Of a stretch of 50,103 nucleotides of DNA, positions 38,546-50,103 are shown one piece after another. The translations under genes and the position numbers were made by a program. Location: positions 1 to 50,103 of the forward strand of contig CANRAL010000004.1 in the NCBI GenBank assembly GCA_947628585.1, read 5' to 3'. Source of the DNA: an uncultured Bacilli bacterium. Lineage in GTDB: Bacteria > Bacillota_I > Bacilli_A > RF39 > UBA660. How positions within the stretch are numbered: position 1 is the first letter of the stretch; every line of letters starts with the position of its first letter. A model generated the notes under the pieces. That model did not search any database. It was not told the DNA's origin and saw only the letters and a list, made by a program, of their open reading frames with translations.

Positions 38546-40570
38546 TCAACTATCTTCATCACAATTTAAACAGACAATTTTTTTATTTTTTTCTACTAAT
38601 AATTCTTTACATTTAGGACATTTCTCACCTGTAGGTTTATACCATAAAGCATAAGTACATTTTGGATAATTACTACAACCATAAAAAATTTTTCCTTTTT
38701 TACTTTTACGTTCAATAATTTTTCCCTTACATTTTGGACAATCACATATTTCTATTATATCTTTCTTTTCTTTTTTTACATACTTACATTCTGGATAATT
38801 ACTACAAGCAATAAATTCACCATATTTACTTTTCCGATAAACTAAAGTACCACCACATTCTGGACATATTTCCCCTGTTGATTCAGGAGCTTTCTTTTCC
38901 ATTTCGTGAAAAGCTTTGTCAACTAAAGGTTCAAATTCTGCATAAAAATCTTTTAATACTTTAATATTATCTTTTTTAGCTTCAGCAATATCATCTAAAT
39001 CTTGTTCCATTTGAGCTGTATATTTAACATTAACAATATTTGAAAAAAATTCTTGTAATTTATCTGTTGTTTCATATCCAATCGCGGTCGGTTCAAACTT
39101 TTTATCTACCAAAGTAACATATTCGCGATCCTTTATCGTTTGAATAATAGTAGCATAAGTACTAGGGCGACCAATACCTAAACTTTCCAATTCTTTAATA
39201 AGACTACTTTCTGTATAACGTGCTGATGGTTTAGTAAAATGTTGAGTTTTAGTAATATCATCGGCAGTTAATATATCAGATTTATAATTTTTTAAATCAG
39301 GTAATAAAACATCTTCATTATCTTCATATTCACCATAAACTTTTAAATAACCATCAAAAGTTAAGACACTTCCCGTTGCTTTAAAAGAATAATCGTTATT
39401 ATCTAATATAACAGTTGTAGCTAATGTTTTAGCATCATGCATCAAAGAAGCTAAAGCTCTTACATAAATTAATTTATATAATTTATATTCATCACTAGAT
39501 AAATAAGCTTTCATCTCTTCAGGAGTTCGATTAATACTTGTAGGTCTAATCCCTTCATGAGCATCTTGAACGTTTTCCGTTTTTTTAGCTTTCTTTACAT
39601 ATCCAATGTATTCTTCTCCATATTTGCCTTTAATATAACCAAAAGTACTTTTTACAAATTCATCAGAAAGTCTAACACTATCAGTACGCATATAAGTTAT
39701 TAAACCAACTGTTTCACTTCCAATATCGATACCTTCATATAATTTTTGCGCTATTTTCATTGTTTTAGAAGCCGCGAAATTTAATTTTGAAGAAGCTAAT
39801 TGTTGTAAAGTACTTGTTCGAAATACTTCTTTACTACTTTTATTTTTTTCTTTTTCTTCAACACTAGCAATTCGAAATGACTTACTTAAAACATCTAATA
39901 TTTTATTAGCGCTAACTTCATCAGGTATTTCGATATCTTTACCCTTATATTTTTCTAAAGTTGCTTTAAAAGTGTTAAAATCAGCTTCTATGGTCCAATA
40001 TTCTTTAGGAACAAAAGCTTTAATTTCTCTTTCTCGATCAACAATTAATTTTAAAGCAACACTTTGCACTCTCCCAGCACTTTTACCCGCGGTTTTACTT
40101 TGCATTAACCGGCTTAAACGAAAACCAATAATGCGATCTAAAATTCTTCTTGTTTCGCCACTTTTAACTAAATCCATATCTATTTTTCGAGGATTATCCA
40201 TGGATTTTAAAACAACATCTTTAGTTATTTCATTAAATACTACTCTTTTATATTTTTCATCAGGAATCTTTGCTTCATCATAAATATGCCAAGATATAGT
40301 TTCCCCTTCTCGATCTGGATCAGTTGCTAAATAAATAGTATCAGCACTATCTATCATTTTCTTTAAGTAAAGAACATCTTTTTTCTTTTCTTTAATAACA
40401 GTATATTTAGGTTTAAAATCATTTTCAATATCTACTCCTAAAGAATATTTTCCTGATTTTGATAAATCCCGAATATGACCCTTACTAGATATAACATTAT
40501 ATTTACTACCTAAATACTTCTCAATAGTTTTACATTTTGCTGGTGATTCCACAATCACTAGATTTTTCAT
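38546..40570 (-). CDS. topA: DNA topoisomerase I
   Basis: VESPAK, DPDREGE, SAGRVQS, ITYMRTDS, C4 zinc ribbons. Confidence 0.97.
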   Translation of the reverse strand: MKNLVIVESPAKCKTIEKYLGSKYNVISSKGHIRDLSKSGKYSLGVDIENDFKPKYTVIKEKKKDVLYLKKMIDSADTIYLATDPDREGETISWHIYDEAKIPDEKYKRVVFNEITKDVVLKSMDNPRKIDMDLVKSGETRRILDRIIGFRLSRLMQSKTAGKSAGRVQSVALKLIVDREREIKAFVPKEYWTIEADFNTFKATLEKYKGKDIEIPDEVSANKILDVLSKSFRIASVEEKEKNKSSKEVFRTSTLQQLASSKLNFAASKTMKIAQKLYEGIDIGSETVGLITYMRTDSVRLSDEFVKSTFGYIKGKYGEEYIGYVKKAKKTENVQDAHEGIRPTSINRTPEEMKAYLSSDEYKLYKLIYVRALASLMHDAKTLATTVILDNNDYSFKATGSVLTFDGYLKVYGEYEDNEDVLLPDLKNYKSDILTADDITKTQHFTKPSARYTESSLIKELESLGIGRPSTYATIIQTIKDREYVTLVDKKFEPTAIGYETTDKLQEFFSNIVNVKYTAQMEQDLDDIAEAKKDNIKVLKDFYAEFEPLVDKAFHEMEKKAPESTGEICPECGGTLVYRKSKYGEFIACSNYPECKYVKKEKKDIIEICDCPKCKGKIIERKSKKGKIFYGCSNYPKCTYALWYKPTGEKCPKCKELLVEKNKKIVCLNCDEDS

Positions 40571-44047: not shown

Positions 44048-44915
44048 CTTGATCTAATGTTACTCCTTTAATTTTTCCACTCACTAAATCATTATAAATC
44101 TTTAAAGCTACTTTTTCCATATCAACTTCATTATTTTTCTTATATCCCATTTTTTCCCCAAGAAAAATTAAAACATCTGCTGTTTCTAAGCTTTTAGCAA
44201 CTTGATAATTAGTTTCTAAAATATGAGGATAATATTTTCGGTAAAAATCAATTAAATAATACGCAATATCTAATATATCTAGAACTTCACTTTTTATGGC
44301 TGCCGTAGCTGCTAAATTTAAAGCTACCCTTTCATCATCTAATTTTGGCCAAAGAATACCTGGAGTATCCATGAGTAATAAATTATTGGCCGTTTTTAAC
44401 CAATTTACATCTTTAGTAATACCTGGTTTATTTCCTACATTTGCCACTTTTTTACCCACCAATTTATTTATAAGAGTACTTTTACCAACATTAGGTATAC
44501 CAATTACAAGAGCCTTTATTTCCTTTTTCTTTAAACCTTTTTCTAATCTACTTTTTTGAATATCCATTGTTAATTTATTAGTCATATTAATTAATGCTTT
44601 ATAATCATTATTATTGGTTAAATCCATAACTAAAACGGGAATGCCTTTATTTTCATAATATTTAACCCATTTATTTGTAATATAAATATCACATAAATCT
44701 TTTTTAGTCATAATTAAAATTCGAGGCTTATTTTTAATTATTTCTTCAATATCTTTATTCTTTGAAGAATAAGGAATTCGCGCATCGATTATTTCATATA
44801 TTATATCAATTAAATTAATATTTTCTATTATTTGTCTTTTGGTTTTAGCCATATGACCAGGATACCAATTGATTACACTTTTATGCAACCACTGTTCTTC
44901 ACTATTATTACTCAT
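44028..44915 (-). CDS. rbgA: Ribosome biogenesis GTPase RbgA/YlqF
   Basis: INWYPGHMAK, DARIP, GIPNVGKSTLIN, DTPGILWP. Confidence 0.97.
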   Translation of the reverse strand: MSNNSEEQWLHKSVINWYPGHMAKTKRQIIENINLIDIIYEIIDARIPYSSKNKDIEEIIKNKPRILIMTKKDLCDIYITNKWVKYYENKGIPVLVMDLTNNNDYKALINMTNKLTMDIQKSRLEKGLKKKEIKALVIGIPNVGKSTLINKLVGKKVANVGNKPGITKDVNWLKTANNLLLMDTPGILWPKLDDERVALNLAATAAIKSEVLDILDIAYYLIDFYRKYYPHILETNYQVAKSLETADVLIFLGEKMGYKKNNEVDMEKVALKIYNDLVSGKIKGVTLDQDEYARI

Positions 44916-44916
44916 T

Positions 44917-45777
44917 TTAATCACTCACTTTTTCTTCTATTTTCTTTGTTTCATCTATATATTTATAATTTAAACTGTTGCTTTTAGATATAGCGGATTT
45001 TTTAGTTTCTTTTTCATATAAGTCCTTTGCTCCTTTGGCAACTCCTCCACCACGCTTTGCTACATTTAGATTTTCTTTTAATCCTTTTGGATGTTCTTCT
45101 CTTGCAATATCCCTTGTTGCTATTTCACCAATATTTGTTAGAGCAACTTCAATATCAGTCATATTATCTCTCAACGATTCTTTTCTGAGACCTTTTAATT
45201 TTTTATATTCAGACGCAGTCATATTTGACCAACCTTTATATATTTCGTTAGTTAAAAGAGCATATTCTAATGGTTTAGTAATTCCCCCTTCTTTCCATAC
45301 ATCGGTAAGTTTAAATCGATCTACAATTCCATTTAACCTTGCCTTTATCCATTCATCATTATATCCTTTTTTTCGATAATATTCTACTGCTCTATTAACT
45401 GCAACTTCAGGATCAAACACCTCATCAATTCTTTCACTTCCTAAATTTGCCAACCACATTTTAAAAGGCTCTGCCTTTGGACTAGGAATTGACTCAATTA
45501 ATCTGAATACATTTTTTGTTTCTAACATATCTGTATTTCGCATTTTACCATCTTTTGATTTTAATTTGAAAGTGTCACAATTTGTGACGGTTTCATTTCC
45601 CTCTTGAACCATTCTAGATTTTAAAGTTCTCCAATAATGAGATGGATCTTTACTTTCGGTTAATGCACCTATAACATCAACAACACTAAAGTAATATTCT
45701 TCTTTTTCACTATCCCAAATACTTCTTATTTCTTTACCATCAAAAAGATTTGAAATTGTTTCTAATTTGTTATTCAA
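44917..45777 (-). CDS. BRO-N domain DNA-binding protein
   Basis: F.GKEIRSIWD...YFSVVDVI.AL, RLIESIPSPKAEPFK.WLA, LRDNMT; TTG start. Confidence 0.9.
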   Translation of the reverse strand: MNNKLETISNLFDGKEIRSIWDSEKEEYYFSVVDVIGALTESKDPSHYWRTLKSRMVQEGNETVTNCDTFKLKSKDGKMRNTDMLETKNVFRLIESIPSPKAEPFKMWLANLGSERIDEVFDPEVAVNRAVEYYRKKGYNDEWIKARLNGIVDRFKLTDVWKEGGITKPLEYALLTNEIYKGWSNMTASEYKKLKGLRKESLRDNMTDIEVALTNIGEIATRDIAREEHPKGLKENLNVAKRGGGVAKGAKDLYEKETKKSAISKSNSLNYKYIDETKKIEEKVSD

Positions 45778-45928
45778 AATGGTCACCTACTTTCTTATTT
45801 TTATTAAGGGTTACAATTCCGTAATCACCTCTCTAATTCTTAACATAATTTATACTAAATTTATTATATTTTTAATAATTTTCACCAAATTTTAATGAAA
45901 ATGTGTAAGATTAAATGTAATGAAAAGT

Positions 45929-46017
45929 CTTTATTTATAAGGGTTTATAACGGGGTTGCAATAAATCGTAATCAACCAATTGATTACACTTTTATTAAGA
46001 ACATTATTATTATTCAT
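45929..46017 (-). repeat. att-like junction A: displaced rbgA start (MNNNNVLNKSVINW) + 48-bp end motif
   Basis: 21 bp identical to the rbgA 5' region; motif 33/48 identical, ungapped, to 47102-47149. Confidence 0.75.
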
Positions 46018-47044
46018 TTTTATCACCACAACTTTTACTTTCTTCTACTAATAAATCAAAATCTGATTTATATAATTTATCTTGTTTAACTCTATATTTT
46101 TCAAATTCTGTTAATGCTTTATCACAAGCAATTTCATGTGATATTTTTCCAGCATCTTTTAAAATATCTCTATCATCTGCAAGTAAGAATTTATCTATTC
46201 TTGTCGCCCAATCTTCCATTGTCATTGGAATATGTCTTCTTGCTCTATTTTCTGCAATTTCTAAAAATGCACTAACAATTACTTCTAAATCTTTAATTTC
46301 TTCTTCAGATAAATAATTTTTAGCAATAATAACATCTGATTCCATTATTTTGCCATTGGGAGAATTTTTCCATGATGTTAAACCCATATGTTCTTTATTC
46401 GCATTTACTCTATCATATATTATTTCAGCTGCTGTTTGATGAGAAACTGCATAATGCATTTTGTTTTGAACCTTTTTAAAAAAGTCAATAGAAATAGGAG
46501 ATTTAGGGTCATAATCAATGCTTGTTGCATATATATCCGTTACTTTTTGATAAAATCTTCTTTCAGATAATCTTATTTCTCTTATTTCTTCAAGTAACTT
46601 TTCAAAATAATCTTTATCAATAAATGAGCCGTTTTTCATTCTTTCTTTATCTAATACATAACCTTGAATCGTAAAAGTCTTTAAGATATTAGTGGCCCAT
46701 CTTCTAAATTGAGTTGCTCTAATTGAATTAACTCGATATCCAACAGAAATAATTGCATCTAAATTATAGAATTCAATACTTCTTTTAACTTTTCTATTTC
46801 CTTCTAATTGAACTAATTCCATTTTGGAATAAGTTGAAGGTTTATCAAGTTCACCATCCGAATATATATTAATTAAATGTTTTGCAATTGCTGGTTGTTC
46901 TACATCAAATAATTCAGCCATTGCTTTTTGAGTCATCCAAAGAGTTTCACTTTCATATCTTACTTGAATACCTTTATCTTTTTCTTGTACTTTAAAAGTA
47001 ATAAACTCTTCAGCACTACTTCTTATCATTAAATCTTTTGCCAT
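46010..47044 (-). CDS. RhuM family DNA-binding protein
   Basis: LWMTQKAMAELF, YNLDAIISVGYRVNS.RATQFR.WA, IREIRLSERRFYQK, VQNKMH. Confidence 0.92.
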   Translation of the reverse strand: MAKDLMIRSSAEEFITFKVQEKDKGIQVRYESETLWMTQKAMAELFDVEQPAIAKHLINIYSDGELDKPSTYSKMELVQLEGNRKVKRSIEFYNLDAIISVGYRVNSIRATQFRRWATNILKTFTIQGYVLDKERMKNGSFIDKDYFEKLLEEIREIRLSERRFYQKVTDIYATSIDYDPKSPISIDFFKKVQNKMHYAVSHQTAAEIIYDRVNANKEHMGLTSWKNSPNGKIMESDVIIAKNYLSEEEIKDLEVIVSAFLEIAENRARRHIPMTMEDWATRIDKFLLADDRDILKDAGKISHEIACDKALTEFEKYRVKQDKLYKSDFDLLVEESKSCGDKNE

Positions 47045-47101
47045 TTCTTCATCTCCTTTGCATATTTATCCGAAAATGTAAAAACTTTTTTCAATAGTTT
47101 C

Positions 47102-47178
47102 CTTTATTTATAATGTCTTGTTAAGGTGTTTCCATAAATCCATATCGCACAGTTTATATTTGTTTTATTTTCATTCAT
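47102..47178 (-). repeat. att-like junction B: displaced rbgA-like start (MNENKTNIN-TG) + 48-bp end motif
   Basis: Same RBS/start module and same ungapped motif ending TTATAAATAAAG as junction A. Confidence 0.7.
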
Positions 47179-48022
47179 TTTTATCACTTACTTTTTCATT
47201 TAATAATTTAATTTTTTCTGCATTATTAAGTATATCTAATTGATATTTACATATATCACTTAATATTTCAAATCTTTCTTCTTTTGATTTTCCTTCTTTA
47301 ATTAACTCAGCATTATGTGATTCTAAATTAGATAAAACAGTTAATTCATTTATGGAAGCATAATCTCTTACATTTGAACTTTTTGCTAACTCTGGATTTA
47401 ATTCTCTCCATTTTTTAGCAGTAGTATGAAATAATATTACATTAAGAATATCTGCTTCTTCAGCATATTTTAACCATTCTTTATTTTTATAAAAATCATT
47501 ATCAGGTAAGATGTAATTTTTAATTGCATCTGTATGAATTAAATAATTATTCTTTGTAAGTATTCTTTTTACATCCCATTCTCTATTTTGATTTTCTAAC
47601 TCTTTTAATCTTTCAAATTCTTTTATTAAATATAATTTAAATACAGGACTTATGGCAGATGCAAATTCAAATGCAATATCTTTATGTGCATATGTTCCAC
47701 CATATTTACCACGTTTTGAATATATGCCAATAGCATTTGTTTTTTCACACCATTCAGTAACACTTAAAGTAAATGTATGAAGTCCAGCACTTTTTCTAAA
47801 CCCGTCGAATTCGACGGAATTAAAATTTGGATTATAAATAGATTCCCATGTTCCTAAAAACTCTAGAGTAATTCTATTCCTTAACCAATTTCTAATCACA
47901 TCATCAGCTTTTGATTTTCCTTCTTTAAATTTACCAAAATCAGAAATGCAAATATAATCATTATCATCTATATTTGTAACATTTATTTTAATATTTTGAA
48001 CTTTTATTATTTTGTTAGACAT
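47171..48022 (-). CDS. KilA-N domain DNA-binding protein
   Basis: DYICISD, I.NWLRNR.TLEFLG.WE, GKYGGTYAHKDIAFEF. Confidence 0.9.
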   Translation of the reverse strand: MSNKIIKVQNIKINVTNIDDNDYICISDFGKFKEGKSKADDVIRNWLRNRITLEFLGTWESIYNPNFNSVEFDGFRKSAGLHTFTLSVTEWCEKTNAIGIYSKRGKYGGTYAHKDIAFEFASAISPVFKLYLIKEFERLKELENQNREWDVKRILTKNNYLIHTDAIKNYILPDNDFYKNKEWLKYAEEADILNVILFHTTAKKWRELNPELAKSSNVRDYASINELTVLSNLESHNAELIKEGKSKEERFEILSDICKYQLDILNNAEKIKLLNEKVSDKNE

Positions 48023-48026
48023 ATAT

Positions 48027-48140
48027 TCACCTTCTTTCACTAGAGCGTATATTTCTAATTCTTTCTAAAAGTCTTTCAAAATAACCTTCACAAAAAATAT
48101 AATTTGGATTTTTTAATCTTTCATCATCAATTACAAATCC
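48027..48140 (-). pseudogene. Internal fragment of a third RhuM gene
   Basis: GFVIDDERLKNPNYIFCEGYFERLLERIRNIRSSERR* aligns to RhuM GYVLDKER...IREIRLSERR. Confidence 0.8.
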
Positions 48141-48641
48141 AGTAATTTCTCCTTCTTTTCATACATCGGTAAGCTTAAATCGATCTACAATACCATTTAA
48201 CCTTGCCTTTATCCATTCATCATTATATCCTTTTTTACGATAATATTCCACTGCTCTATTAACTGCAATTTCAGGATCAAACACCTCATCAATTCTTTCA
48301 CTTCCTAAATTTGCAAGCCAAAGTTTAAATGGTTCTGCTTTATTTGATGGAACTGATTCAATTAATCTTAAAATTCCCTTAGTATCTAATACATCGGTGT
48401 TATAGAATTTTCCATCTTTAGCTTTTAATTTCAGTTGACTACAAAATGTAGTCAACTCAGATCCTTCTTTTTTCAATCTTAGCTTTAATACAGACCAATA
48501 TTTTCTAGTATCACTACTATCAGTTAATGCATTTATAACATCAATAACACTAAAGTAATATTCTTCTTTTTCACTATCCCAAATACTTCTTATTTCTTTA
48601 CCATCAAAAAGATTTGAAATTGTTTCTAATTTATTATTCAA
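48141..48641 (-). pseudogene. Truncated BRO-N paralogue
   Basis: Near-identical to 44917-45777 except the central segment; TGG->TGA at 48159, then KEGEIT fused in frame to the RhuM fragment. Confidence 0.85.
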
Positions 48642-48749
48642 AATTCCACCTACTTTCTTTTTTTATTAAAGATTACAATTTCGTAATCACCTTTCAAATT
48701 TCTATATCATTTTTACTAAATTTATTATTTTTTTAATAATTTTCACCAT

Positions 48750-48787
48750 TTTTCTAAATTCATCGAATTCGATGGAATTAAATTTCA
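48750..48787 (-). pseudogene. Short KilA-N remnant
   Basis: Similar to 47791-47827; reads (F)NSIEFDEFRK vs FNSVEFDGFRK. Confidence 0.65.
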
Positions 48788-49194
48788 TAAATAATAGAAC
48801 CATTCTTAGCATCTTTATGGTTTAGTAAAACTTTAACTTCAAGAGAACTAGGTACAATATCAAAAGCATTTCTTTGATTCATGTAGGTAATTGTTTCTGA
48901 AATATTTTCAAAATGAAAATAAAAGCATAAAGAATCATTCGTTACTCTTTTTACATAAGAATTAGTTGGCCAAATTAATGCTGGCTCATTATTCTCTGAT
49001 ATTATATATTCATTAAAATCAATTTCTACTTTTTTACCAGTTTCTATATTATCGATTTCATTCCAATTATAATATATAAAAACTCGGAAACAATATATAC
49101 CAGATTTATCAATAATTCTTAAATCATCTTCATCTAATTCAATTTTACTTATGCCAATATTGATACCATTTAGAATCATCATATTATTTTCCAT
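48778..49194 (-). CDS. Hypothetical protein (cassette cargo)
   Basis: ORF overlapping the RhuM stop; no recognised motif. Confidence 0.65.
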   Translation of the reverse strand: MENNMMILNGINIGISKIELDEDDLRIIDKSGIYCFRVFIYYNWNEIDNIETGKKVEIDFNEYIISENNEPALIWPTNSYVKRVTNDSLCFYFHFENISETITYMNQRNAFDIVPSSLEVKVLLNHKDAKNGSIIYEI

Positions 49195-50103
49195 TTGAAT
49201 CGCTGCTTTCTTTAAAGTATTTATTGTAAAATTCATCCATCGAAGATATATATTTTTGATCTTGAATTACCCTATATTTTTCATATTCGCTTTCCGCTTT
49301 ATCGACTGCTTCTTTATGAGTTATTTTACCAGAATGAGTCAAAATATTTTTTTCTCTAAATTTTAATAATTTATCCGTTGCATTTATCCAATCGTTCATA
49401 GTCATAACTGTGTGTTCATATGCCATATCTTCTGCATAATCTAAAAAGGCTAAAGTTAGACGATTTAACTTATTTAATTCTTCTTCAGTTAAATAGTTTT
49501 TAGCAATAGAAACATCGTATTTATATATTAATCCATCTGGACTATTTTTCCAATTAGTAAGTCCCATATTTTCTTTATTAGCATTAGCTCTTGTATAAAT
49601 TAATTCTGCTGCAGTATAACCACTTATCGCGTAATGCAATTTGTTTTGCACAATTTTAAAAAATGTGTATGCTTCTTCAGCTTTTGGATTATAATCGGAT
49701 GATGTCGCAATGAATAAATCAGTAATCTTTTGATAAGACATTCTTTCGCTTACTCTAATAGTTTTAATTCTTTCTAATAATTCATTAAAATATTGTGTGC
49801 TAAATGTATTTCCACTTATAAATCTCTCATCATTTAAAGCAAAACCTTTTATCATATATTCTTTTAGTATTTTAGTTGCCCATATTCTAAATTCAGTTGC
49901 TTTTTTAGAATTAACTCGATAACCAACCGCAATTATAGCATCAAGATTATATATTTTTGTTTTATAATTTTTACCGTCTGAAGCAGTTACCGAGGAATCC
50001 TCGACAACTGCATTTTCATCAAGTTCGTTATCTTTAAATATATTTTTTAAATGCAATGATATATTATCAGTAGAACAATCAAAAACTTTAGACATTCCTT
50101 TTT
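49184..50103 (-). CDS. RhuM family protein (5' end outside the window)
   Basis: YNLDAIIAVGYRVNSKKATEFRIWAT, IRVSER, VQNKLH; frame open to the window edge. Confidence 0.9.
   Translation of the reverse strand, partial: KGMSKVFDCSTDNISLHLKNIFKDNELDENAVVEDSSVTASDGKNYKTKIYNLDAIIAVGYRVNSKKATEFRIWATKILKEYMIKGFALNDERFISGNTFSTQYFNELLERIKTIRVSERMSYQKITDLFIATSSDYNPKAEEAYTFFKIVQNKLHYAISGYTAAELIYTRANANKENMGLTNWKNSPDGLIYKYDVSIAKNYLTEEELNKLNRLTLAFLDYAEDMAYEHTVMTMNDWINATDKLLKFREKNILTHSGKITHKEAVDKAESEYEKYRVIQDQKYISSMDEFYNKYFKESSDSNGK

Follow-up and report, generated by a model that had tools for sequence, protein, structure and literature searches.

Repressor–operator pairs with diversifying specificity are known from the immunity regions of lambdoid phages and from the C-protein/C-box controllers of restriction-modification systems. 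Binding sites inside coding sequences are also known, as parS inside spo0J (parB) of Bacillus subtilis and the ori-lambda repeats inside gene O. Here, a set of palindromes located inside genes encoding Bro-N, RhuM and KilA-N proteins was analyzed in contig CANRAL010000004.1 (assembly GCA_947628585.1) of an uncultured Bacilli bacterium. The stretch analyzed (hereafter the window; 50,103 nucleotides, nt) is the entire contig C4 of a 1.24-Mb genome (1,239,203 bases in 59 contigs, 25.5% G+C, estimated to be 95% complete). Dyad symmetry in these genes is maintained by covariation of the two arms, is locked at the codon level, and is coupled to residues of a predicted winged helix-turn-helix (wHTH) domain encoded on both sides of the palindrome, suggesting a DNA site that would be read by the product of the gene containing it.

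Like lambdoid immunity and C-box systems, the arrangement would combine a dimeric helix-turn-helix (HTH) protein with a dyad site of ~14–25 bp, and reading residues and site differ together between alleles, are tightly linked and belong to mosaic, recombining pools. Unlike those systems, each gene has only one site, placed within its coding sequence and flanked by the codons of helix and wing, and its binding is putative. A palindromic site within the coding sequence of its own binding protein recalls parS in spo0J and ori-lambda in gene O, but the parS sequence is conserved among bacteria and recurs around the origin, whereas the present sites are unique per gene and hypervariable. Integron attC sites likewise show variable sequence, conserved structure and arrays of small genes; however, they lie between cassettes, are longer, carry extrahelical bases and need the integron integrase, whereas here the stems lie inside open reading frames (ORFs), are mostly perfect and have no integrase in their island. 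Cis-regulatory RNA hairpins such as those in Rfam are also short helices backed by compensatory changes, but the present elements have no Rfam match, no wobble bias and a constrained centre base, and they lie deep in coding sequence.

Among solved proteins, the best match of the predicted folds is DdrC of Deinococcus radiodurans (7qvb, 7udi, 8u0g), described as a domain-swapped homodimer in which an N-terminal wHTH motif is followed by helices (PMC9303277). DdrC differs in having 8–14% sequence identity to these proteins and two asymmetric DNA-binding sites; it is called Deinococcus-specific, and the accessible part of that report describes no site in its own gene (PMC9303277). DdrC and, going by its annotated name, DinD are both DNA-damage-induced. 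RhuM, DinD and KilA-N genes are reported to be enriched beside type I restriction-modification genes, with RhuM and DinD placed within such loci (PMC9881135). In the literature on RhuM, dinD, Bro-N, defence and intragenic operators, supplementary tables not covered, no description of these palindromes was found.

Palindromes maintained by covariation inside coding sequences

A first-pass annotation made from the sequence alone had reported six palindromes, and inspection of the sequence located all six exactly where it had placed them. In the Bro-N gene BRO1, TGAAA-CC-GTCACAA-A-TTGTGAC-AC-TTTCA (45567–45595, minus strand) has 14-nt arms that are 86% complementary, with 1 nt between them, and is centred on the middle base of codon 69. 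Its paralogue BRO2 carries AGTTGACTACA-TTT-TGTAGTCAACT (48433–48457, minus strand), an 11-bp perfect stem with a 3-nt loop which is the longest perfect short-range inverted repeat of the window. Gene RhuM1 contains AACTTATTCCA-AAA-TGGAATTAGTT (46811–46835, minus strand; 10 of 11 pairs, centred on base 3 of codon 74) and RhuM2 contains GCAGTT-GT-CGAGGA-T-TCCTCG-GT-AACTGC (49983–50011, minus strand; 12 of 14 pairs). In the KilA-N gene, CCGTCGAATTCGACGG (47802–47817) is perfect over 16 nt, centred between codons 77 and 78, and an imperfect dyad extends it to 47794–47825; a KilA-N remnant retains the perfect 14-nt palindrome CATCGAATTCGATG (48761–48774, minus strand). The register described in the annotation also held, both Bro-N dyads being centred on the middle base of the codon preceding a shared Cys and both RhuM dyads on base 3 of the seventh codon after E-L-D. 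Paralogues differ in sequence with the dyad kept: GTC/GAC in BRO1 corresponds to ACT/AGT in BRO2 and to CCG/CGG in BRO3, a third paralogue on contig C2, and GTC/GAC of the full KilA-N copy is replaced in the remnant by the compensatory pair ATC/GAT. The CCG and CGG codons of BRO3 would be expected to be rare in a genome this low in G+C.

Hairpins of at least 18 bits number 81 in the 1,239,203 bases of the genome, 29 of them inside ORFs of at least 100 amino acids (aa); three of these 29 fall within the 5.2-kb island segment, where ~0.34 would be expected. Each palindrome is unique, as no second copy with up to 1–3 mismatches was found in the 59 contigs, an absence that is unproven in an incomplete genome. 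No promoter-proximal copy of any palindrome was found in this search, and a regulon of shared sites was discarded, since no further copy of any palindrome or arm stood out.

Homologues comprised 80 Bro-N loci, 80 RhuM loci, 34 KilA-N rows and 24 DinD-type rows, aligned in fixed windows anchored on conserved residues rather than on structure. The 80 Bro-N loci gave 68 different 60-mers, which together with the two window copies made up the 70 distinct rows of the Bro-N/DinD-like set. Two DinD-type rows were dropped (L222, a broken copy, and L214, out of register), and a scan of viral_contigs for KilA-N yielded four loci. Over a 10-bp helix, 95.0% of Bro-N pairs were standard, versus 63.9% with partners shuffled and 17.7–37.4% with the arms slid, and 9 of 10 pairs changed on both sides. 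The corresponding values were 90.6% versus 65.7% and 17.0–43.8% for RhuM (82 rows; two-sided changes at 11/11 pairs), 86.8% versus 68.2% and 28.5–55.9% for KilA-N (7/10 pairs), and 92.7% versus 70.0% and 25.0–48.9% for the DinD type (10/12 pairs). None of 500 shuffles reached the covariation score. The earlier statement that dyad symmetry and register are kept while the sequence changes was thereby established for the three families it had named, and it extends to a fourth, the DinD type. The encoded peptides are diverse (ETVTNCDTF, ELTTFCSQL, QLYENIVQL, ELVSNTNQL and others), yet the arms are complementary in each.

A scan of all dyad centres along the codon alignments of three families returned a single outlier in each, at nt 205 in Bro-N (0.902 paired), nt 221 in RhuM (0.916) and nt 230.5 in KilA-N (0.85), over a background of 0.26–0.27 and next-best centres of 0.70, 0.56 and 0.54, respectively. 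In Escherichia coli K-12, dinD contains a near-perfect 32-nt palindrome, its only hairpin above the scan threshold, at an apparently homologous position (codon 64, nt ~190; judged by eye from shared D-H-F and M-V residues). A fixed distance from the start codon was rejected because these four centres differ, and RhuM2 as called begins only ~30 codons ahead of its palindrome; a domain layout common to these genes explains the position better. In two classical Bro-N antirepressor-type genes (L228, L229), no hairpin exceeded the threshold, which argues, weakly given n = 2, that the palindrome is not a feature of every Bro-N gene.

Synonymous-codon shuffles, the outcome on which the first-pass annotation had let its proposal depend, formed far fewer pairs than observed. 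With codons sampled from the usage of each gene in 1000 simulations, 6.14 pairs were obtained versus 9.34 of 10 observed in Bro-N, 6.77 versus 10.18 of 11 in RhuM and 4.63 versus 7.88 of 9 in KilA-N. The pair sum of each family exceeded the maximum of the simulations, and p ≤ 0.05 was reached individually by 70 of 74 Bro-N, 81 of 84 RhuM and 33 of 34 KilA-N sequences. Variability at synonymous sites drops only within ~6 codons of the dyad centre, and some covariation is purely synonymous, Leu TTG occurring with Gln CAA and CTG with CAG, and Ile ATT with Arg CGA and ATC with CGG. The shuffles and this synonymous covariation exclude a cause at the protein level, namely an amino-acid motif combined with codon usage. 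Chance is excluded by the number of hairpins found genome-wide, by both the slid and the shuffled controls, and by the synonymous shuffles.

The signal appears to reside at the DNA level, with no wobble bias of the RNA type. Across families, the 2230 stem cells contained 51 G·T, 69 A·C and 117 other non-Watson-Crick combinations; an RNA helix on the sense strand is disfavoured, because G·U should then exceed A·C and does not. The central 5 nt of the dyads are 98% A/T, and all 66 Lys codons at the centre are AAA, whereas AAG supplies 34% of the Lys codons of these genes overall and 47% of those in genes with a G+C fraction of at least 0.42. A loop has no need of an A/T-only centre, whereas a protein-bound or extruding DNA dyad might require one. 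Rfam gave no match at E values up to 1 over 44800–50103, and no T-run indicative of an intrinsic terminator follows the stems on either strand, the coding-strand sequence after each stem being A-rich. A larger RNA structure was dismissed, as synonymous conservation is confined to the palindrome and Rfam gave no match.

Coupling of the site to a predicted winged-helix domain

Coupling between site and protein was assessed by adjusted mutual information (MI) in RhuM and Bro-N, the KilA-N (34 rows) and DinD-type (24 rows) sets being too small. The statistics were computed on related sequences, ignoring kinship. Pairs at positions 3–12 from the centre are conserved and were divided into an inner core (positions 3–8) and an outer arm (positions 9–12).

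In RhuM, adjusted MI between the inner core and residues 48–55 was 0.44–0.70, whereas that between the outer arm and helix residues was 0.03–0.11. By contrast, wing residues 79, 81, 84, 86 and 88 were coupled to the outer arm (0.58–0.85), these five columns giving 0.17–0.21 with the inner core, and residues 78–92 gave 0.12–0.27 with it. Variable residues 58–70, although nearer to the palindrome, were weakly coupled to the inner core (0.09–0.30), except N59 (0.40). Residues A52 and K55 are wholly determined by the core type (MI/entropy of 1.00). The helix motif P-A-K accompanies core TTCC in 30 of 30 sequences, which comprise five outer-arm types, and D-N-L accompanies CGAG in 18 of 18, with three outer-arm types. 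A similar partition was observed in Bro-N. Helix residues 49, 50, 53 and 54 gave 0.63–0.78 with the inner core (H50, R53 and T54, 0.70–0.78), the outer arm gave 0.64 with S77 and 0.90 with R83, and 66 far columns averaged 0.08 with a maximum of 0.19. Seven Bro-N helix/inner-core types are present in both outer-arm classes. These comparisons point to a double dissociation in both families, in which the recognition helix follows the inner bases and the wing follows the outer ones. The best-tracking residues are encoded 15–25 codons upstream of the palindrome (recognition helix) and 5–15 codons downstream of it (wing).

The Bro-N outer arm often varies only synonymously (Glu GAA/GAG, Leu CTG/TTG, Gln CAG/CAA). 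In all 74 sequences, the third base of codon 65 is G when residue 83 is Tyr and A when it is Arg. Contacts within the protein cannot cause this link, because the residues encoded by the arm are unchanged. In BRO1, residue 83 (codon at 45538–45540, minus strand) is an Arg of the predicted wing hairpin that follows the synonymous state of the outer arm.

Folds were modelled with AlphaFold2 for BRO1 (predicted local distance difference test, pLDDT, 76) and RhuM1 (pLDDT 69). Both models show the same order, strand-strand-helix-helix, then the segment encoded by the palindrome, then strand-strand (a beta hairpin) and helix, predicting a wHTH as the common fold of the two N-termini. The recognition helix of BRO1 is predicted at codons 48–61 (helix H48-61; 45604–45645, minus strand), and in RhuM1 the codons tracking the inner core, 48–55 (46880–46903, minus strand), would form the HTH turn and the first part of its recognition helix. 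The first-pass annotation had supposed that the peptide encoded by the palindrome itself sets DNA specificity. This idea was not supported: the peptide is a low-confidence loop in the BRO1 model (residues 62–73, pLDDT ~62–65) and begins the first wing strand in that of RhuM1, and the residues tracking the site best lie elsewhere.

The DdrC dimer was the best solved match of both models, with E values of 1.5e-5 for BRO1 and 1.6e-3 for RhuM1, and template-modelling (TM) scores of 0.41–0.51 for BRO1 depending on the target. BRO1 is predicted to form a symmetric homodimer. A two-copy prediction scored 0.69, versus 0.00 for the best of three controls, with the same residues of both copies in the interface, agreement of three runs in at least 90% of contacts and a partner pLDDT of at least 82. 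The mark used for dimers was reached by 20 of 30 proteins solved as same-chain pairs and by 1 of 23 solved as single chains, counts that apply only approximately here because an alignment made for this analysis was used, and the score of BRO1 may echo its likeness to the solved DdrC dimer. These models suggest that DinD-like Bro-N, RhuM and DdrC proteins belong to a wider superfamily of winged-helix dimers linked to damage or defence.

The gene island and its surroundings

From 44.9 kb to the contig end every gene lies on the minus strand, in the coordinate order BRO1, RhuM1, the KilA-N gene, BRO2, a KilA-N remnant, a 152-aa ORF and RhuM2. BRO1 (44917–45786) encodes a 289-aa Bro-N/DinD-like protein (Pfam Bro-N, E 7.6e-11; PADLOC PDC-S13, E 2.8e-112), RhuM1 (46010–47044) a 344-aa protein (Virulence_RhuM, E 7.6e-110; PDC-S05, E 3e-151) and the KilA-N gene (47171–48040) a 289-aa protein (KilA-N, E 1e-19; PDC-S22, E 3.5e-115). 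RhuM2 (49184–50095; Pfam E 1e-99) stands at the contig end, and its upstream part was found on contig C37, which overlaps. The island continues there with a second, DinD-type Bro-N gene of 293 aa, and is bordered by core genes, signal peptidase and rplS on the C37 side and ylqF and rnhB on the side of the window. Bro-N (PF02498) scores of BRO1 (42.9 bits), BRO2 (38.2) and the C37 gene (41.2) all exceed the gathering score of 25.6, as do those of RhuM1 (366.5 bits) and RhuM2 (333.4) for Virulence_RhuM (PF13310; 33.7) and of the KilA-N gene (70.8 bits) for KilA-N (PF04383; 23.8). NCBIfam gave no family match, sequence searches of solved structures returned nothing informative, and no restriction, integrase or reverse-transcriptase gene was seen among the island ORFs. 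Logan contigs from sequencing runs are short and end near the palindromes, as repeats and strain variants would lead one to expect; contigs of one RNA library (X20) cover portions of these genes, an overlap that is no proof of transcription and was given no weight here.

Profiles PDC-S13, PDC-S05 and PDC-S22, which cover the four families, are phage-defence candidates by name only, and no experiment on them was found in the literature on RhuM, defence and phage. The C37 gene (L195:276–1157) matches PDC-S13 at E 2e-95. It also matches positions 2–271 of the 717-position PADLOC profile of the type I specificity subunit and positions 12–130 of the 468-position PDC-S05 profile; from these partial matches, natural fusions of a DinD-type module with HsdS and with RhuM seem to exist.

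Several decayed gene copies are present within the island. BRO2 (48159–48641) is a Bro-N paralogue shortened by a stop: comparison of 48141–48163 with 45295–45300 in BRO1 shows TGA at the codon corresponding to Trp164 (TGG) of BRO1. Since the frame beyond reads KEGEIT, like KEGGIT in BRO1, BRO2 looks like a recently broken copy. BRO1 and BRO2 are almost identical in their flanks and diverge over a central ~190 nt, in the middle of which the palindrome lies. A RhuM-like remnant at 48030–48263, located between BRO2 and the KilA-N gene, shows 41% identity to residues 86–163 of RhuM1 (tblastn). The KilA-N remnant (48746–48810, ~65 nt; repeat comparison against 47780–47860) has become joined both to the 3' end of the 152-aa ORF and to sequence upstream of BRO2. 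This ORF (48778–49236), which belongs to no family, ends in KilA-N-derived sequence (…GSIIYEI* versus …ESIYNPN), a fusion that appears local to this genome because the homologous ORF in L005 has no such tail.

Elsewhere in the genome, BRO3 (C2:29139–30005) is directly preceded by a 538-aa ORF (C2:27480–29096) whose N-terminus resembles, by eye, a large serine recombinase, and this copy may lie at the edge of an integrated element. A KilA-N paralogue at C36:9749–10402 has an in-frame stop and is missing the 10 residues in which the window copy carries its palindrome. Palindromes of other kinds were also noted. A 36-nt perfect palindrome outside long ORFs, TTGAAGATTTTTGCCACTAGTGGCAAAAATCTTCAA (C20:6847–6882), forms the strongest hairpin in the genome. 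In the window, the 20-nt perfect palindrome TGAGAGCTTTAAAGCTCTCA (38529–38548) stands just downstream of a topA-like ORF (38546–40570, minus strand), overlapping its last three bases, and may be a terminator. Contig C9 holds three palindrome copies with core TGTTTCACGTGAAACA within 420 bases (22236–22257, 22522–22553 and 22629–22654), which resemble canonical parS sites.

A proposed private operator weighed against its rivals

From these comparisons, it is somewhat probable that the palindrome is a private operator, acting at the DNA level, for the winged-helix dimer encoded by its own gene. The dyad site, 25–30 bp long and ~65–80 codons into the frame in Bro-N/DinD-like, DinD-type, RhuM and this subfamily of KilA-N genes, would be read by a symmetric homodimer of the N-terminal wHTH domain. 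The recognition helix of each subunit would read the inner 5–6 bp of a half-site. As the centres of these inner cores lie ~11 bp apart, one helical turn, the two helices would enter successive major grooves. By analogy with the general behaviour of winged-helix dimers, the wing would read the outer 4–5 bp, that is the flanking bases, and the central 5 bp, kept A/T, would probably be unread. Because the site sits between the codons of helix and wing, recombination could not part it from its reader, which would explain their joint diversification and the differing sites of paralogues within one genome. A private operator would thus account together for the symmetry, the hypervariability, the A/T centre, the lack of wobble bias, the uniqueness of each site, the differences between paralogues and both couplings. 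The annotation had proposed that the protein recognizes the DNA encoding it, specificity and site evolving together; this co-evolution gained comparative support from the covariation with helix and wing, the predicted homodimer and the lack of wobble bias, and the binding is putative. As for the effect of binding, our guess is autoregulation by roadblock, sensing, or the anchoring of a candidate defence protein at the locus that encodes it.

Several observations weigh against this reading. The 112 far columns of RhuM already average an adjusted MI of 0.24, with a maximum of 0.59. Linkage between neighbouring codons must contribute to the coupling statistics, and some of the outer-arm signal could be imitated by a constraint on pairing alone if the right arm and the wing are inherited as one block. 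Several diverged Bro-N sequences retain the mismatched stem TCC/GTA, so perfect symmetry is not always enforced, and the KilA-N inner core is nearly invariant, GAATTC in 28 of 34 sequences. An operator 200 nt inside a gene is unusual, and roadblocks are usually weak. The description of DdrC itself is that of a nucleoid-associated protein whose two DNA-binding sites are asymmetric, not that of a sequence-specific repressor (PMC9303277).

Three other explanations account for the pairing, and none of them for the couplings or the constrained centre. A structural hairpin, in mRNA or in single-stranded or cruciform DNA, would act by base pairing and be read by general host machinery, for instance to control mRNA decay, to pause ribosome or polymerase, or as an obstacle to replication. 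Covariation without conservation of sequence is the classic sign of a base-paired helix, stems of 10–15 bp would be stable in such a short, self-contained element, and an A/T-rich centre is also compatible with cruciform extrusion. However, 51 G·T versus 69 A·C show no excess of G·U on the sense strand, a loop would not limit its centre base to A/T (no AAG in 66 Lys codons), and neither an Rfam match (E up to 1) nor a T-run beyond the stem on either strand was found; moreover, a hairpin alone leaves unexplained the inner-helix and outer-wing couplings and the link to residue 83 in 74 of 74 sequences. We regard it as unlikely, though worth keeping in view. DNA secondary structure might instead start recombination that swaps the variable central block among alleles, paralogues and silent remnants, resembling structure-triggered gene conversion at loci of antigenic variation. 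The near-identical flanks of BRO1 and BRO2 around a ~190-nt diverged block centred on the palindrome speak for such exchange, the island holds truncated copies and remnants, one with its palindrome still perfect, and helix/inner-core and wing/outer-arm modules have been reassorted at least seven times. Yet single-copy genes such as E. coli dinD retain the palindrome although they have no silent copies, pairing reaches 87–95% whereas selection for evolvability is weak, no dedicated nuclease or recombinase was seen among the island ORFs, and stems of 10–15 bp are short for known hairpin nucleases, which together leave a recombination starter quite improbable.

The other suggestion of the first-pass annotation, a hairpin that drives targeted diversification, found no support, as the genome yielded no second copy or template and a purely mutational process does not predict coupling to distant residues. 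Template switching during replication could also keep correcting a quasi-palindrome, so that its arms evolve in concert as a neutral by-product without function; it has been proposed that such switching generates perfect stems, keeps them perfect and introduces compensatory changes in a single step (PMC8794818). This has very little probability in our estimate: it gives no account of four families each keeping one site at the same structural position, of the A/T-only centre or of coupling to residues 10–25 codons away, and the persistence of the mismatched stem across several diverged sequences implies that correction is not fast.

Other identities considered for the palindromes were rejected. 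A crossover site of a serine recombinase does not agree with odd-length dyads in two families, unconserved sequences and no recombinase in the island itself; a gene resembling a large serine recombinase lies just upstream of BRO3. The palindromes did not fit, by eye, consensus sequences of LexA or CRP-type boxes. For the target of a diversity-generating retroelement, no template copy was detected (1–3 mismatches, 59 contigs) and no reverse transcriptase among the island ORFs, in a genome 95% complete.

Returning to the private operator, its broadest form has chances somewhat short of even. It would describe a superfamily of candidate anti-phage genes (DinD including E. coli dinD, DinD-like Bro-N, RhuM and one KilA-N subfamily) provided with a self-addressed lock and key, a hypervariable operator between the codons of helix and wing, such that each allele would bind only its own gene and recombination would never separate site from reader. 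Binding of the own locus may be part of holding these proteins in check, or of sensing the state of the cell's DNA during infection. Even without a role as operator, a nucleic-acid element that is codon-locked in four families demands explanation, and it calls for caution in codon optimisation of these genes and in analyses of their nonsynonymous to synonymous substitution ratio (dN/dS). The proposal is directly testable in E. coli K-12 through dinD. If true, it would disclose a new layout of regulator and site, with the site in coding sequence flanked by the codons of its reader, and a natural table of helix residues and half-site bases (P-A-x-x-K with TTCC, D-N-x-x-L with CGAG, x-T-x-x-E with NCGG) usable as a recognition code, and it would for the first time give mechanistic access to four gene families that are very widespread and of unknown mechanism.

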